From a virus (lineage: Duplodnaviria; Heunggongvirae; Uroviricota; Caudoviricetes): 15,464 bases of DNA. The stretch lies in the IMG/VR virus record IMGVR_UViG_2869953405_000005, one strand, 5' to 3'. The stretch's first letter is position 1. Each line of letters opens with the position of its first letter. The position numbers and the translations under genes are program-made. Below, in pieces: positions 1,738 to 10,047 of the stretch. The notes under the pieces are model-generated. The model did not search any database, was not told the DNA's origin, and worked only from the letters and a program-made list of their open reading frames with translations.

Positions 1738-1801
1738 TGAGGTAGCCTGAGTTTAACGGACACTCCTTCCTGAAATAGAATGGCATCAGAAGGAGCTAAT
1801 A

Positions 1802-2104
1802 ATGAGCAGAAAAACCCAACGTTACTCTAAAGAGTTCAAAGCCGAAGCTGTCAGAACGGTTCCTGAAAATCAACTTTCGATCAGTGAAGGCGCTTCCCGA
1901 TTATCTCTTCCTGAAGGCACTTTAGGACAATGGGTTACCGCCGCCAGAAAAGGGCTCGGTACTCCTGGTTCCCGCACGGTGGCTGAACTGGAATCTGAAA
2001 TTCTGCAACTGCGTAAGGCGTTAAATGAAGCTCGCCTTGAGCGAGATATATTAAAAAAAGCAACAGCGTATTTTGCACAGGAGTCGCTGAAAAATACGCG
2101 TTAA
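1802..2104 (+). CDS. IS600 OrfA (IS3-family transposase, N-terminal HTH part)
   Basis: 100-aa ORF, identical to ORF 10048..10350; RBS GGAG before the ATG. Confidence 0.9.
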   Translation: MSRKTQRYSKEFKAEAVRTVPENQLSISEGASRLSLPEGTLGQWVTAARKGLGTPGSRTVAELESEILQLRKALNEARLERDILKKATAYFAQESLKNTR

Positions 2105-2139
2105 TCGAACAATGGCGACAACAATTTCCCATTGAAGCG

Positions 2140-2958
2140 ATGTGTCAGGTATTTGGTGTATCCAGGAGCGGTTATTACAACTGGGTACAGCATGAACCCT
2201 CAGACAGAAAACAAAGTGATGAGCGGCTAAAACTGGAGATTAAGGTGGCACATATCCGCACTCGCGAAACATATGGAACCCGGCGGCACCAGACGGAGCT
2301 GGCAGAGAATGGCATCATCGTTGGTCGTGACCGACTGGCACGTCTTCGTAAGGAGCTAAGGCTACGCTGTAAGCAGAAACGCAAGTTCAGAGCGACTACG
2401 AACTCGAACCACAATCTGCCAGTTGCGCCAAATCTGCTGAACCAGACGTTCGCTCCTACAGCACCAAATCAGGTCTGGGTGGCGGACCTGACGTATGTTG
2501 CCACACAGGAGGGATGGTTGTACCTCGCTGGCATCAAAGATGTTTATACGTGCGAAATTGTCGGCTACGCCATGGGAGAGCGCATGACAAAAGAGCTGAC
2601 AGGTAAAGCCCTGTTTATGGCGCTCAGGAGCCAGCGCCCACCTGCCGGGCTAATCCACCACTCTGATCGAGGTTCACAGTACTGCGCATACGATTACCGG
2701 GTCATACAGGAGCAGTCTGGTCTGAAAACATCAATGTCGCGTAAAGGTAACTGTTACGACAACGCTCCGATGGAAAGCTTCTGGGGAACGCTGAAAAATG
2801 AGAGCCTGAGCCACTATCGTTTTAATAACCGGGATGAAGCCATCTCAGTAATACGGGAATACATTGAGATTTTCTACAATCGTCAGCGTCGTCACTCTCG
2901 TCTGGGGAATATCTCCCCGGCAGCCTTCAGGGAAAAATATCATCAGATGGCTGCTTAA
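2140..2958 (+). CDS. IS600 OrfB (DDE transposase catalytic part, normally expressed as OrfAB by -1 frameshift)
   Basis: 272-aa ORF in the -1 frame relative to orfA; integrase-core-like sequence (HSDRGSQY...). Confidence 0.9.
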   Translation: MCQVFGVSRSGYYNWVQHEPSDRKQSDERLKLEIKVAHIRTRETYGTRRHQTELAENGIIVGRDRLARLRKELRLRCKQKRKFRATTNSNHNLPVAPNLLNQTFAPTAPNQVWVADLTYVATQEGWLYLAGIKDVYTCEIVGYAMGERMTKELTGKALFMALRSQRPPAGLIHHSDRGSQYCAYDYRVIQEQSGLKTSMSRKGNCYDNAPMESFWGTLKNESLSHYRFNNRDEAISVIREYIEIFYNRQRRHSRLGNISPAAFREKYHQMAA

Positions 2959-3001
2959 AAAAAGAACAAATGGTAGTGTCCGCTATTGCCAGTACACCTC
3001 A

Positions 3002-3143
3002 GGGTATAAGGGGTTATGGCCACCGGACTACCAAACGGCTGCCAGCCCTCTTTCAGTTTATGTGTCAGCTTTTCCGCAAGATCTGACGGCGGCGCCGCCC
3101 TGACAACATCATAGTGTTTAAATGCCATGGTTCTTTCCACCAT
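3002..3143 (-). pseudogene. N-terminal fragment of a small gene interrupted by the IS600 end
   Basis: Minus-strand ORF MVERTMAFKHYDVVRAAPPSDLAEKLTHKLKEGWQPFGSPVAITPY runs into the IS600 terminus at 3001; GGTGGAAAG precedes the second ATG (3126-3128). Confidence 0.3.
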
Positions 3144-3321
3144 CTGAAAAATAATTCTTTAAAATACCTGACATGTAATACAGAAAAAACACAAAACCAT
3201 ACCTTAAATAAAAACCTGATTATCAAGCAGATATGCATGGATAAACTACAAGACGAGATATAAACCACCCTGCATTTAAATAAACAATAAACAACATCAG
3301 AAAAATAATTCTGCTCTATGG

Positions 3322-3348
3322 TTTACATTCAAAAATATCATTTATACT
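3322..3348 (+). promoter_or_regulatory. candidate sigma70 promoter for ORF 3389..3724 (TTTACA, 15-nt spacer, TATACT)
   Basis: Hexamers read directly from the sequence at 3322-3327 and 3343-3348; spacing is suboptimal at 15 nt. Confidence 0.3.
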
Positions 3349-3388
3349 TTTCAGAACATCACCAGCAAGGCATAAACAAGGAAACTAA

Positions 3389-3724
3389 ATGAAGTGGATT
3401 GTGATTGATACAGTTATCCAGCCATCATGCGGAATATCTTTTTCAGTCATATGGAGTAAAATAAAATTAATAATCTGGTATCAATCGGATGCTTTCTTAC
3501 CTCCTGAAAGTATATTTACACTGACTCACACAGGCATCATGCTCAATAACAAAGTGCTACCTGTAACCATTTACAACGTAGTACCATTCAATAAAACATT
3601 CTGGAATTCAATCAAAAATAGCCAGGAATGCCCTACAAATACAGATAACGTATTGAATGAATGCTTTAATAACCGTTGCACTCTGCAAATATGTCCTTAT
3701 GGACTAAAACAACAAAGTCCATAA
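3389..3724 (+). CDS. hypothetical Cys-rich small protein (111 aa), orphan
   Basis: ATG preceded by AAGGA about 8 nt upstream; 6 of 12 Ile codons are ATA (manual count); C-terminal third has 5 Cys; lies in AT-rich DNA; no family recognised. Confidence 0.45.
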
Positions 3725-3758
3725 GGAGTTTACTCACATCTGACAAAATCAATATAAA

Positions 3759-3780
3759 CAGCCCCTCCGGAGAGGGGCTG
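3759..3780 (-). terminator. intrinsic-terminator-like hairpin (9-bp perfect stem, 4-nt loop) with T-rich tract on the minus strand
   Basis: CAGCCCCTC-CGGA-GAGGGGCTG; on the minus strand it is followed by TTTATATTGATTTTG; no T-tract on the plus strand. Confidence 0.45.
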
Positions 3781-4171
3781 GAGAGTGGCGCTATGTGCCA
3801 TTGCATGGTGCCGGGTGCCTCCCGGTGAATTCAGTACCAGCACCTGAATCCGCGATTATCCCATATACCTACTCGCTGATTGCCCCTCCGCACAGGGGGA
3901 TTCACCATGCCAGTTTCTTTTAACAAACTCCCCGCAAACCAGACAACAGTCAACCGCCTGAATTGTGAAGTATTTAAAAATTTCTCCCGCTAACTGATAC
4001 CCGGCTAACAGTCTGGCGTTTTCTTTTTCAGCAACGGGAAAGCAACAACCACCACACCCGCCACCAGCACACCGTCAGCCAGCACTGACATTATCCGGCT
4101 GCTGCAATGCCATTCACAAAAACAGTAAGCAATCACTTTTTACCGTAACAGGTGATAATCCAGATATGTAT

Positions 4172-4525
4172 CTACCCCAGATGAGTAATCCGAAGTTCAT
4201 CCATACCACAGGTCCTGGCTATTCTGTTGTACTCCTGAACAAGAGCAAATAATTCTGAATTAGCAACCATGAACTCATCGCAAACCCTCTGTATAGCATC
4301 ACTATTCAGAATAATAACGTCTCTTCCCGAAAGACGATCAGGAGTACAGAACAAAACTGTCAAACGGCTGAAGGCCTTTGCTCGTGCTGCATTGACTATA
4401 TCAATACGCTGCCTAAGGATGAAACACCCCGACGCCTCATCAATATTCACTCTACCCACACCATATGAATGATAAATATTTAATGCTGAAAAAACCATTA
4501 GACCGTATAACAAACACTCAATCAA
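4172..4525 (-). CDS. hypothetical protein (117 aa), doubtful
   Basis: ORF opens right after a stop with a TTG at 4525 and no Shine-Dalgarno; first ATG is codon 10; unrecognised; may be a gene remnant. Confidence 0.2.
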   Translation of the reverse strand: MIECLLYGLMVFSALNIYHSYGVGRVNIDEASGCFILRQRIDIVNAARAKAFSRLTVLFCTPDRLSGRDVIILNSDAIQRVCDEFMVANSELFALVQEYNRIARTCGMDELRITHLG

Positions 4526-4635
4526 TACTTAACAGAACTTTTATTTTTGACAAACATAAAATATTTTCAACAATATCCTGAGCCAGGTATATTTCAGTAT
4601 AAGGCTCTGCCGGAAGGAATCTGGAAGAATGAATA

Positions 4636-4712
4636 TGGCGCGCTGTACTGGATTCGAACCAGTGACCGATTGCTTAGAAGGCAATTGCTCTGTCCGGCTG
4701 AGCTAACAACGC
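4636..4712 (-). tRNA. tRNA-Arg (anticodon UCU)
   Basis: 77-nt cloverleaf folded by hand: acceptor GCGTTGT/ACAGCGC, D-stem GCTC/GAGC, anticodon stem ATTGC/GCAAT with loop CTTCTAA, T-arm ACTGG-TTCGAAT-CCAGT, encoded CCA. Confidence 0.85.
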
Positions 4713-4812
4713 TGAATACCGATAATGGACCGCCATCGGGGACCCGCCCCCGCACCAACAACCCTGTTATCGTGTCGTCTGCTCTTCCTGATAAGCTAAT
4801 GGCGGTTTGTGA

Positions 4813-4888
4813 TGGTGGCCCTTGCTGGATTTGAACCAGCGACCTGGCGATTATGAGTCGCTCGCTCTCACCACTGAGCTAAAGGGCC
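4813..4888 (-). tRNA. tRNA with CAU anticodon, ileX/ileZ-like (tRNA-Ile2; Met not excluded)
   Basis: 76 nt: acceptor GGCCCTT/AAGGGCC, anticodon loop CTCATAA, T-arm GCTGG-TTCAAAT-CCAGC, encoded CCA; resembles recalled E. coli ileX but diverged. Confidence 0.8.
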
Positions 4889-4924
4889 GGGAGCAGAATA
4901 ATAACGGTCCGTAATTAATTCCGC

Positions 4925-4949
4925 AATAAAAAACCCGCTCGGCGGCGGG
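4925..4949 (-). terminator. intrinsic terminator between Q-like gene and tRNAs (tR'-like candidate)
   Basis: On the minus strand CCCGC-CGCCGA-GCGGG is followed by TTTTTTATTG. Confidence 0.5.
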
Positions 4950-4990
4950 TTGTAGAAACTCTTCTAACGTCAGGCATAAAACGCCCATAG

Positions 4991-5845
4991 TTATGACGAA
5001 TTTACCACAGATTCCGGAAAAATCAACCTAGTTACCTTTTTTAACTGCCGCTCAGCCCATGCTTCTTCAATATCAAACCGAGTCACCAGCGCATCATAGA
5101 ATTTCTTAACTGTTTTTTCCCATGACGCGCGTGTTATCTGGTTTGTCACCTCGCATATAGCATTAAATGCCTCCGTTGATGGTAGTCTTTCATAGCCACG
5201 ACCACCACAACGCTGGCAGTCTCTGATAACAGGCATACCACGTTTTACCGACTCTTCACGATGAATGGCGACACCACGCCCACGGCAATCCTTACAGGCG
5301 GTGGAAACCTCACCCTTTCCGCCACACTCCGGACAGGCAACTTTTACCACCTCCCTGACTTTTTTCCATTCTTCCCAGTAAGACGGATACACACCTTTCG
5401 TACACTTTGCCCATACCGGCGGCTTACCATCCGGATACTGGACCTTGTTTGTAAAAACTACGCTTTCAATAAATTTTTCCCCATAGCAACAAGGGCACTG
5501 CTTTTTACTCGCTGCGCTGCGGGCATAATCCTCAAAAGCGTACGAAGCCATAATGCGCATCACTACCGGTTTTATTTCTGCCGGAAGTTTTCTCAACGCC
5601 GCCACACGATCGCACCGACTGAGTGCATAATCTGCCAGTAATTCTGTTGCCCGCGCCCTGTCATTCATACTGATGCCCATTTTCCCCAGGAACGCAGAAA
5701 ACCCCATCTCAGCCCGATTCTGTGTCATGCCCTGCGCGGCCATCACATCAGTGATACTCAGCGCATCTTTTGACGTTGAGGCCGATGCATCGGTCAGGCA
5801 AGGGGATTTTGGGGAGTAGTATTTCGGTAAATCTTCCAGTTTCAT
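4991..5845 (-). CDS. putative lambdoid late antiterminator Q-like protein (284 aa, DnaJ-type Zn-finger motifs)
   Basis: Sits between rusA and terminator/tRNAs as in lambdoid late-control regions; CPECGGKG, CKDCRGRG and CQRCGGRG motifs; ATGA overlap with the rusA stop; Q assignment rests on position and motifs, not a verified alignment. Confidence 0.5.
   Translation of the reverse strand: MKLEDLPKYYSPKSPCLTDASASTSKDALSITDVMAAQGMTQNRAEMGFSAFLGKMGISMNDRARATELLADYALSRCDRVAALRKLPAEIKPVVMRIMASYAFEDYARSAASKKQCPCCYGEKFIESVVFTNKVQYPDGKPPVWAKCTKGVYPSYWEEWKKVREVVKVACPECGGKGEVSTACKDCRGRGVAIHREESVKRGMPVIRDCQRCGGRGYERLPSTEAFNAICEVTNQITRASWEKTVKKFYDALVTRFDIEEAWAERQLKKVTRLIFPESVVNSS
4999..5026 (-). promoter_or_regulatory. 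candidate late promoter (pR'-like): TTGATT, 16-nt spacer, TAAATT on the minus strand
   Basis: Hexamers read from the sequence; overlaps the 3' end of the Q-like ORF; predicted start lies about 40-60 nt upstream of the terminator at 4925-4949. Confidence 0.25.
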
Positions 5846-6473: not shown

Positions 6474-6807
6474 AAGAAACGCTCCATCTTACTGCTGTCA
6501 GTTCGTTTATTACTGTATCTGCGCGGATTGCCGGGCTTCATGGGAGTGGAAAGCACCCGTGCACTTTCCTGGTCCACAGGCAGAAAATGTCCGTAGACTG
6601 GCCCCCTGAATCTCCAGACAACCAGTATCACTTAAATAAGTGATAGTCTTAATACTAGTTTTTAGACTAGTCATTGGAGTACAGATGATTGATGTCTTAG
6701 GGCCGGAGAAACGCAGACGGCGTACCACACAGGAAAAGATCGCAATTGTGTCAACGCCACGATGTTTGACCGTTATTTGCCATTTTCATGCCCGCTAAAT
6801 ACTTTCG

Positions 6808-8777
<1,970 letters not shown>

Positions 8778-9025
8778 GTTGATGTCCTTTCTGGTGTGAG
8801 AACCTTAAGGAAACAACATGGTGTAGCAGCCAGCCAGTTATTTCTCTGGCGTAAGCAATACCAGGAAGGAAGTCTTACTGCTGTCGCCGCCGGAGAACAG
8901 GTTGTTCCTGCCTCTGAACTTGCTGCCGCCATGAAGCAGATTAAAGAACTCCAGCGCCTGCTCGGCAAGAAAACGATGGAAAATGAACTCCTCAAAGAAG
9001 CCGTTGAATATGGACGGGCAAAAAA

Positions 9026-9931
9026 GTGGATAGCGCACGCGCCCTTATTGCCCGGGGATGGGGAGTAAGCTTAGTCAGCCGTTGTCTCCGGGTGTCGCGT
9101 GCGCAGTTGCACGTCATTCTCAGACGAACCGATGACTGGATGGATGGCCGCCGCAGTCGTCACACTGATGATACGGATGTGCTTCTCCGTATACACCATG
9201 TTATCGGAGAGCTGCCCACGTATGGTTATCGTCGGGTATGGGCGCTGCTTCGCAGACAGGCAGAACTTGATGGTATGCCTGCGATCAATGCCAAACGTGT
9301 TTACCGGATCATGCGCCAGAATGCGCTGTTGCTTGAGCGAAAACCTGCTGTACCGCCATCGAAACGGGCACATACAGGCAGAGTGGCCGTGAAAGAAAGC
9401 AATCAGCGATGGTGCTCTGACGGGTTCGAGTTCTGCTGTGATAACGGAGAGAGACTGCGTGTCACGTTCGCGCTGGACTGCTGTGATCGTGAGGCACTGC
9501 ACTGGGCGGTGACTACCGGCGGCTTCAACAGTGAAACAGTACAGGACGTCATGCTGGGAGCGGTGGAACGCCGCTTCGGCAACGATCTTCCGTCGTCTCC
9601 AGTGGAGTGGCTGACGGATAATGGTTCATGCTACCGGGCTAATGAAACACGCCAGTTCGCCCGGATGTTGGGACTTGAACCGAAGAACACGGCGGTGCGG
9701 AGTCCGGAGAGTAACGGAATAGCAGAGAGCTTCGTGAAAACGATAAAGCGTGACTACATCAGTATCATGCCCAAACCAGACGGGTTAACGGCAGCAAAGA
9801 ACCTTGCAGAGGCGTTCGAGCATTATAACGAATGGCATCCGCATAGTGCGCTGGGTTATCGCTCGCCACGGGAATATCTGCGGCAGCGGGCTTGTAATGG
9901 GTTAAGTGATAACAGATGTCTGGAAATATAG
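9026..9931 (+). CDS. insD: IS2 InsD (orfB, DDE transposase part)
   Basis: 301-aa ORF matching recalled IS2 InsD; overlaps the insC end at the A6G frameshift site. Confidence 0.9.
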
Positions 9932-10047
9932 GGGCAAATCCAGTCCGTTATAAAAACGCCGGTAAATCGTTCCCAGAGAACCGTGAGGTAGCCTGAGTTT
10001 AACGGACACTCCTTCCTGAAATAGAATGGCATCAGAAGGAGCTAATA

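Follow-up and report, generated by a model that had tools for sequence, protein, structure and literature searches.

The 15,464-nucleotide (nt) stretch of DNA in IMG/VR virus record IMGVR_UViG_2869953405_000005 (Caudoviricetes), hereafter the window, very probably carries the pR' promoter, qut site and tR' terminator of a Q-lambda-family antiterminator, kept in a decayed lambdoid prophage of a genome resembling Shigella or enteroinvasive Escherichia coli (EIEC). We are likewise confident that the site is a homologue of pR'/tR' and would be functional as such in an intact phage. What it represents is a textbook late-gene switch with a known mechanism, of which the locus adds a further example. 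In lambda, the steps from start site and pause to termination and Q-dependence are textbook matters, and we infer them for the window by homology.

A Q-lambda cassette consists of the Q gene, pR', a Q-binding element, a sigma-dependent pause element, a terminator and the late genes (PMC9388147). As can be seen in Table 1, a gene assigned to the Q-lambda family lies immediately upstream of the site in the window, a predicted sigma-70 promoter adjoins the 3' end of this gene, a predicted sigma-dependent pause element occupies the initial transcribed region and a putative intrinsic terminator follows the pause site. Late genes downstream of the terminator are found in relatives but not in the window, where tRNAs, two small open reading frames (ORFs) and an antisense iraM gene remain.

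Promoter, pause element and terminator

The initial annotation of the window had pointed to TTGATT and TAAATT, 16 nt apart and overlapping the 3' end of a Q-like gene, with a strong hairpin and T-tract downstream on the same strand and before the tRNAs, and had likened this to the compact pR'/tR' arrangement of lambdoid phages. The coordinates of the hexamers proved correct on the minus strand, the hairpin and T-tract were located at 4951..4928, and the likeness extends to an in-register alignment with lambda and P22, the P22 record itself annotating the same elements. In this alignment, the window reads TTGATT-16-TAAATT-cgtcat-AACTATGGGCGTTTTATG, lambda reads TTGACT-17-TAAATT-tgactc-AACGATGGGTTAATTCG and P22 reads TTGACT-17-TAAATT-tgactc-AACGATGGATAAATG. 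The spacer of the window is closed by an extended -10 motif, TGg (T5007 G5006). The start that had been expected near 4990 agrees with the +1 at A4992 derived from homology, a position that falls within the TAA closing the extended Q gene described below.

The part that the initial annotation did not mention is the pause element, AACTATGGG, which begins 6 nt past the -10 and is the counterpart of AACGATGG(G) in lambda and P22, lambda reading AACGATGGG. In sigma-dependent pause elements, a -10-like sequence is joined by a discriminator-like one and accompanied by a TNYG pause, and the scrunched-pause consensus in lambda is T+14 N+15 Y+16 G+17 (PMC9191641). AACTAT in the window agrees with this definition, in that it retains the A and the T corresponding to -11A and -7T in a -10 element, with GGG coming next. 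The composite motif TAAATT-N6-AANNATGGG has a single match in the window, as compared with 0.01 expected. Searching the literature for AACGATGGG as a text string returned only unrelated primer matches.

The tR' stem-loop, AACCCGC-CGCCGA-GCGGGTT at 4951..4932, has seven pairs, five of them G-C, and a folding energy of -11.2 kcal/mol. It is followed by a run of six T (4933..4928) and then ATT up to 4925. Relative to the predicted start, the hairpin occupies +42..+61 and the T run extends as far as +65, such that the terminated RNA is predicted to be ~65-68 nt long. Located 40 nt upstream of tRNA-Ile2, the hairpin starts 48 nt past the -10. The terminator is one-directional, as the plus strand presents no T run after the hairpin. 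In its dimensions, it is compact and P22-like rather than lambda-like (194 nt).

Some other candidates in this region were considered and set aside. A hairpin predicted by folding at +7..+21 of the leader was dropped as a conserved element, given that close relatives differ at both +11 and +18. A sub-threshold Rfam Trp_leader match at 4925..5031 (25.7 bits against a gathering cut-off of 41, E = 0.012) is most simply explained by the terminator hairpin and T-tract, and at a permissive E-value the two tRNAs were the sole real Rfam matches over the region. A search within Q for an antisense promoter site of the cII/C1 type (TTGC-N6-TTGC; compare lambda paQ and P22 Pa23) yielded none, with matches below chance.

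Conservation of the module among relatives

Our deep comparison considered 17 loci, i.e., the window, lambda, P22, ES18, mEp237, mEp460, Midgardsormr38, FSL SP-016, a Klebsiella phage, a Yersinia phage, a phage recorded with a Vibrio host, a Shiga toxin (Stx) 2c phage and five E. coli prophages, with the DNA after the Q stop being extracted from the relatives. All 17 present a -35/-10 pair, 6-7 nt, a -10-like pause hexamer and then an intrinsic terminator. The pause hexamer conforms to A-A-N-N-(A/C/G)-T in 16 loci and reads ATAGTG in Pm34. For 15 of the 17, the terminator lies 26-67 nt from +1; the scan places it at +108..+132 in Midgardsormr38, while for lambda, which the scan mis-called, the terminator was read from the sequence and ends near +194. 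The terminator hairpins of these loci are often of unrelated sequence.

The shallow comparison was based on 80 IMG/VR loci with a near-identical Q, 78 of which contain the motif, in 22 haplotypes over -36..+68. In these 78 relatives, the 12 hexamer columns and A1, A2, A5, T6 and G7-9 of the pause element are invariant, as are 13 of the 14 columns of the tR' stem, the remaining one holding a singleton. Among the other columns, 13 of 71 vary, including +50 and +52 in the loop and +3 and +4 in the pause element. These last two (window 4989-4990, minus strand) are the sole tri-allelic columns of the range, and give the hexamer alleles AACGAT, AATGAT, AACTAT, AAAGAT, AACAAT and AATAAT, whose agreement with the -10 consensus lies between 3/6 and 5/6. 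Such a pattern of variation would be the expected footprint of a sigma region-2 binding site. Identical +3 alleles occur with G and with T at +11, and the variation at +3/+4 could reflect recurrent mutation or recombination, and could be neutral or serve to tune pause strength.

More than 1,200 complete E. coli genomes match the module (Q, pR', pause element and tR') over at least 80% of its length. Many matches in complete E. coli genomes span just Q to the T-tract (query 1-150) and then diverge, the recombination junction lying directly after the T-tract: TTTTTTAT is followed either by T gcgg..., leading into the tRNA module, or by G actg..., leading into another module.

The Q gene and the repeat at its end

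That the gene upstream is Q-like, as had been noted, is confirmed at the family level. The protein matches Pfam PF03589 (E = 7e-55, 183.6 bits against a cut-off of 26.7) and aligns end to end with the lambda Q of PDB 7UBM (phmmer, E = 1.8e-40; lambda residues 1-113 and 116-207), the cryo-electron microscopy structure of the lambda Q loading complex, PF03589 being the Q-lambda family (PMC9388147). Its PHROG label is 'anti-termination protein Q-like'. For the protein alignment we used 11 homologues, 35-89% identical to the window Q, with four further relatives left out. Conservation includes the four zinc ligands as well as the C-terminal L..VTR. Residues 195-207 of lambda Q refold and contact RNA polymerase, with L202 and T206 being functionally important (PMC9388147); the equivalents of both are kept in the window Q. 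Between the two lambda-aligned blocks, at the base of what is the 'arm' in lambda Q, lies an insertion of ~68 amino acids (aa 114-181; window 5303-5506, minus strand) with CPCC...CPEC, i.e., a second zinc ribbon, which is absent from lambda and P22 Q and found in most homologues too.

The window Q ends with TAA at 4993..4991, and the pR' hexamers overlap its last 11 codons. In the usual arrangement, ...aag gta act agg TAA caagg TTGATT, the 8-bp unit GGTAACWA at the Q end is present in two copies and Q ends with KVTR* ahead of the -35, as in lambda; the mEp460 repeat region reads ggtaactaggtaacaagg. Near-identical IMG/VR alleles contain one, two or three copies, most having two and one contig three. 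The second copy carries the normal Q stop, and both two and three copies give a 273-aa Q ending in VTR*. In the window, pR' overlaps Q because one repeat copy is missing: the stop is lost, and Q continues as LIFPESVVNSS* through its own promoter, extending it by 11 aa. In the alignment with the 11 homologues, only the window allele continues past ...VTR; apart from this, the protein shares 98.9% identity with Q of phage mEp460. An exact 57-mer of the window allele had no match in a collection with one genome per species. The one-copy state is also found in E. coli TK3889 and six IMG/VR contigs. Among complete E. coli genomes, the best match, TK3889, has the same length as the window and the next matches listed are 8 nt longer. 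The repeat remnant reads ...CTA in the window and ...CAA in TK3889, and these sequences suggest that the two one-copy states are independent slippage events. The overlap of pR' and Q is thus a derived and rare state.

The spacer as a candidate Q-binding element

The pR' spacer contains TTTCCGGAATCTG / TTTCCSGAAWCTG, which we consider a candidate Q-binding element. It is nearly the same in mEp237 and Midgardsormr38, whose Q proteins share 55% and 51% aa identity with that of the window, despite differing flanking DNA, and it has no resemblance to the lambda spacer. Two versions of the spacer go with two versions of Q. CCGGAA (window 5014-5017, minus strand) is found with a Q that reads ...QITRASWEK (residues ~236-243), and CCCGAA with a Q that reads ...[IL][ST]LDTWKK, in nine loci from two clades. 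Co-variation of this CCGG/CCCG position with a Q helix is thus possible, but it should be noted that phylogenetically this amounts to one single event.

Expression of the tRNAs and the cargo region

The initial annotation had placed the tRNAs and the cargo slot under Q-dependent antitermination. In relatives, the module does precede tRNAs, cargo and lysis genes, and this part of the proposal stands; against the remainder, the tRNAs have a promoter-like site of their own and iraM lies antisense. The promoter-like site, TTGCGG-17-TATTAT, ends 9 nt ahead of the mature 5' end of tRNA-Ile2, with a consensus match of only 8/12. The 40 nt upstream of tRNA-Ile2 travel with the tRNAs and not with Q/pR'/tR', and in an Stx2a phage are placed after a methylase gene. 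For Stx2a phage, a start site of a tRNA promoter was mapped by dRNA-seq between tR' and stx2AB (PMC7547250). Given this mapped promoter and the conserved promoter-like site, the tRNAs should not be regarded as solely Q-dependent, and are probably expressed both autonomously and by read-through.

The Stx-phage tRNA trio consists of tRNA-Ile2 and two tRNA-Arg. The first and third are intact in the window. The middle one is degenerate: its acceptor and T-arm ends are kept, its anticodon region is scrambled, it carries a 4-nt insertion, and neither ARAGORN nor Rfam calls it. Further downstream, the phrog_2873 ORF is preceded by a 9/12 promoter-like site (4570..4543) and contains a terminator-like site (4336..4318); this ORF is without annotation in the RefSeq and mEp460 records inspected. 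The cargo region also contains iraM, encoding an anti-adapter protein that stabilises RpoS, in an arrangement shared with E. coli 042. With 3005-4640 as the query, ~860 complete E. coli genomes show a match over 80% or more of its length.

Table 1 Features of the window considered in the analysis, with coordinates in window numbering.
Feature	Position	Strand	Basis or remark
Q antiterminator gene, long form, 284 aa	4991..5845	minus	PF03589, lambda Q alignment
Single copy of 8-bp unit GGTAACTA	5036..5029	minus	copy-number comparison with relatives
pR' -35 TTGATT	5026..5021	minus	sequence read directly; aligned with lambda/P22 TTGACT
pR' spacer tttccggaatctgtgg / TTTCCGGAATCTGTGG, 16 nt	5020..5005	minus	candidate Q-binding element
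pR' -10 TAAATT	5004..4999	minus	identical to lambda and P22 pR' -10
Predicted +1	A4992	minus	homology register with the 5' nucleotide of P22 late RNA
Predicted sigma-dependent pause element AACTAT + GGG, +1..+9	4992..4984	minus	register with P22 AACGATGG; -10-like and discriminator-like
Inferred scrunched-pause site TATG, +15..+18	4978..4975	minus	TNYG match, 1 nt downstream of lambda position
tR' intrinsic terminator (hairpin and T run)	4951..4925	minus	scan and folding
Promoter-like site TTGCGG-17-TATTAT	4926..4898	minus	conserved with tRNA module
tRNA-Ile2, CAT anticodon, lysidine type	4888..4813	minus	ARAGORN, Rfam, annotation of RefSeq relatives
Degenerate middle tRNA-Arg	~4726-4805	minus	likeness to Stx-phage cluster
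tRNA-Arg (TCT)	4712..4636	minus	ARAGORN, Rfam
phrog_2873 ORF, 117 aa	4172-4525	minus	PHROG 2873, full length, E = 3.8e-70
DUF3927 ORF, 43 aa	4005-4136	minus	ORF list; RefSeq name DUF3927 family protein
iraM homologue	3389-3724	plus (opposite pR')	NCBIfam, E = 4.7e-48
IS1 copies	508-1276; 10498-11266		second nested in IS3-family copy at 9984-12026
IS3-family copies	1738-3004; 9984-12026
IS21-family istA and istB	6808-8777		element ~6595-8800
IS2 genes	8628-9931
Tail-fibre gene fragments	12008-13712	plus
ipaH-family type III effector (E3-ligase) gene	13713-15464	minus	runs off window; abuts tail-fibre fragments

Comparison with known systems

P22 (gene 23) is similar to the window in that a Q-lambda-family antiterminator lies directly upstream and is followed by the -10 TAAATT, a 6-nt discriminator and AACGATGG at +1. 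The P22 record annotates P late, qut, the +1 (first A of AACGAT) and t late, and the terminator at +31..+59 (+28..+57 in our scan) is compact, as is that of the window at +42..+65. P22 differs in its -35, TTGACT, and in a 17-nt spacer of other sequence, presumably with another Q-binding element; its gp23 is a short form of 207 aa that, unlike the window Q, lacks the second zinc ribbon; and its lysis genes directly follow the terminator, without tRNAs or cargo.

Lambda (pR'/qut/tR', 6S RNA) shares the Q family, the -10 and the pause element with GGG, and its mechanism is structurally defined (PMC9388147, PMC9191641). Its leader is 194 nt long as compared with ~66 nt in the window, its TNYG lies at +14..+17 rather than +15..+18, its spacer differs, and the window Q has the additional 68-aa insertion and 11-aa tail.

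The Stx2 prophage of E. coli JNE082640 belongs to the same Q clade, with a Q that is 89% identical. The -35, -10 and terminator hairpin are identical and the spacer is one base off (CCCG versus CCGG in the window). This sister allele precedes the same tRNA module, here with three functional tRNAs (tRNA-Ile and two tRNA-Arg), and stx2A as cargo. Its Q, however, ends in VTR* before the -35, and its pause element is AACGAT. In E. coli 042, Q is followed in turn by tRNAs, DUF3927, iraM (opposite strand), DUF1737, holin, lysozyme and terminase, and TK3889 and mEp460 present similar late genes after the module.

In Stx phages, transcription from pR' is constitutive and in lysogens stops at tR', and antitermination upon induction yields the late transcript, including the toxin (PMC7547250). 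The functional layout of the Sp5/933W type (pR'-StxS-tR'-tRNA-stx2) is that of the window, and its tRNA module, with its own promoter, is ~88% identical. The pR'-tR' DNA, however, is dissimilar at the megablast level, and the Stx leader is 258 nt long and processed to a 74-nt small RNA (sRNA), as compared with ~66 nt in the window. The Q of the Sp5/933W type we take to belong to a different family than that of the window. Homology of the window leader to StxS was rejected, as the Stx2a phages match the tRNA segment of the query alone and Rfam yielded no family match.

Proposed mechanism and alternative explanations

By analogy with lambda, sigma-70 RNA polymerase would initiate constitutively at A4992 from TTGATT-16-TGgTAAATT, and sigma region 2 would re-bind AACTAT + GGG (+1..+9), causing a scrunched pause at about +16 to +18. 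Without Q, the complex would escape, terminate at the hairpin and T-tract (+42..+65) and release an RNA of ~65-68 nt. With Q, binding to the spacer (candidate TTTCCGGAATCTG) and loading onto the paused polymerase would allow Q and NusA to build a nozzle on the channel through which RNA exits, such that terminator hairpins are blocked. Transcription would then read through past tR' into the tRNAs and same-strand cargo ORFs, and in intact relatives on into the lysis and structural genes. The cassette of the window is intact in sequence, its present-day output being most likely the short leader RNA together with tRNAs from their own promoter, and any Q-dependent read-through would no longer be linked to the normal induction cascade. 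Whether the window Q allele and its context still permit antitermination we consider about evenly balanced.

Several points weigh against this reading and need to be considered. By themselves, the pR' hexamers are at chance level. They match the consensus at 8/12 positions and, as the promoter scan used a threshold of 9/12, were not listed, while 61 sites of 8/12 quality occur across the window (~2 per kb per strand), only three of them with TGn. As sites of this quality are that common, the hexamers alone are insufficient for the claim. Terminator-like sites number four in 2.3 kb, where 1.7 +/- 1.5 are expected, and the fold of the 73-nt leader is ordinary when compared with shuffles (z = -0.56). 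On hexamer, terminator and fold counts alone, the promoter and terminator pair is not above chance. The presumed Q-binding element is a conserved spacer, and should be read as a candidate site. Three residues of lambda Q with a part in antitermination, C53, H56 and L58, correspond to L, M and I in the window Q, and the 11-aa tail follows the segment that contacts RNA polymerase, by which this allele may be impaired. Finally, the context is degraded, with an insertion sequence (IS) in the upstream helicase gene and the late genes missing. The background rates and the leader fold are what would be expected of chance promoter-like hexamers beside a generic end-of-operon terminator of the Q transcript, an explanation that we consider very improbable, because the composite motif and the comparative evidence, namely the in-register homology with the annotated pR'/qut/tR' of lambda and P22 and the element-specific conservation in 78 relatives, put the site above chance.

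A pR'/tR' homologue could still contribute little to expression in its own surroundings. The tRNAs and cargo ORFs might be driven mainly by their own promoters, moron-style, with tR' acting as an insulator and Q read-through being minor. The conservation of TTGCGG-17-TATTAT with the tRNA module even behind a methylase gene, the tRNA promoter start mapped in Stx2a phage (PMC7547250), the promoter-like and terminator-like sites before and within the phrog_2873 ORF and the opposite orientation of iraM all favor this view. We nonetheless hold it to be rather unlikely as the main explanation, as the tRNA promoter-like site is itself just an 8/12 match and as autonomous expression is compatible with read-through from pR', the lysis genes downstream in intact relatives being presumed Q-dependent by analogy with lambda. 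Comparable doubt applies to the proposal that the cassette is a dead relic, conserved only through the recency of decay, with a 284-aa Q that is inactive or unexpressed and a terminator that is never bypassed. The tail appended upon loss of the 8-bp repeat, the IS21-family element in the helicase gene upstream of rusA-Q, the replacement of the early region by IS2, IS3-family and IS1 copies and the ipaH gene, and the loss of the late genes at 3004 would be explained in this manner. Yet the rest of Q is nearly identical to mEp460 Q, several independent contigs as well as TK3889 share the 284-aa allele, beside intact lysis and terminase genes, and outward transcription from an IS could still express Q. 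It is improbable that the short pR'-tR' RNA was selected in its own right, as a trans-acting Hfq-type sRNA like StxS that was kept after the prophage decayed. The Stx-phage pR'-tR' transcript is indeed a functional sRNA, and antiterminated promoters were proposed as an sRNA source (PMC7547250); in the window, a hairpin and U-tract close the leader, and heavy IS damage all around has left the cassette intact. On the other side, similarity to the Stx2a-phage pR'-tR' region is lacking (the tRNA part alone matches), as is any Rfam match, qut function accounts for leader conservation to ~+27, and close relatives differ in the leader at +11, +18, +23 and +31. The more elaborate version, in which a constitutive ~66-nt pR' RNA was co-opted as a StxS-like trans-acting regulator whose output is tuned by the copy number of the 8-bp repeat and the +3/+4 alleles, is a little less probable still.

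Preferring the conserved pR'/tR' switch, we consider that an exact +1, pause element and terminator help to predict which prophage cargo is coupled to induction, and that the relatives offer pause-element alleles as a natural series, together with a candidate Q-binding element for the long-form Q subfamily, which to our knowledge has not been studied. The practical value lies in annotation: the promoter, qut site and terminator are unannotated in all public records inspected for the Q clade of the window, and in some E. coli genomes the module lies directly before stx2.

Decay of the prophage and surrounding genes

Across the window, prophage remains and insertion sequences form a mosaic. The IS21-family element interrupts the phage replicative-helicase gene ~380 nt upstream of rusA, and IS elements flank the surviving Q-tRNA-iraM block. 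Homology to the prophage of E. coli 042 extends from rusA (6219) to 2999 and halts at the IS3-family element (3004). The coupling of cargo expression to prophage induction that the initial annotation envisaged is therefore unlikely to survive in the window, because the IS elements separate Q from pR and the early operon and have removed the late genes. The window itself would mainly show a regulatory switch orphaned through IS-mediated decay.

The ipaH-family gene at the end of the window points to Shigella or EIEC. The junction of tail-fibre fragments and ipaH resembles, as we take it, the chromosomal ipaH islands of these bacteria. Ten of the 30 Ile codons in ipaH are AUA; the adjacent prophage tRNAs read AUA and AGA.

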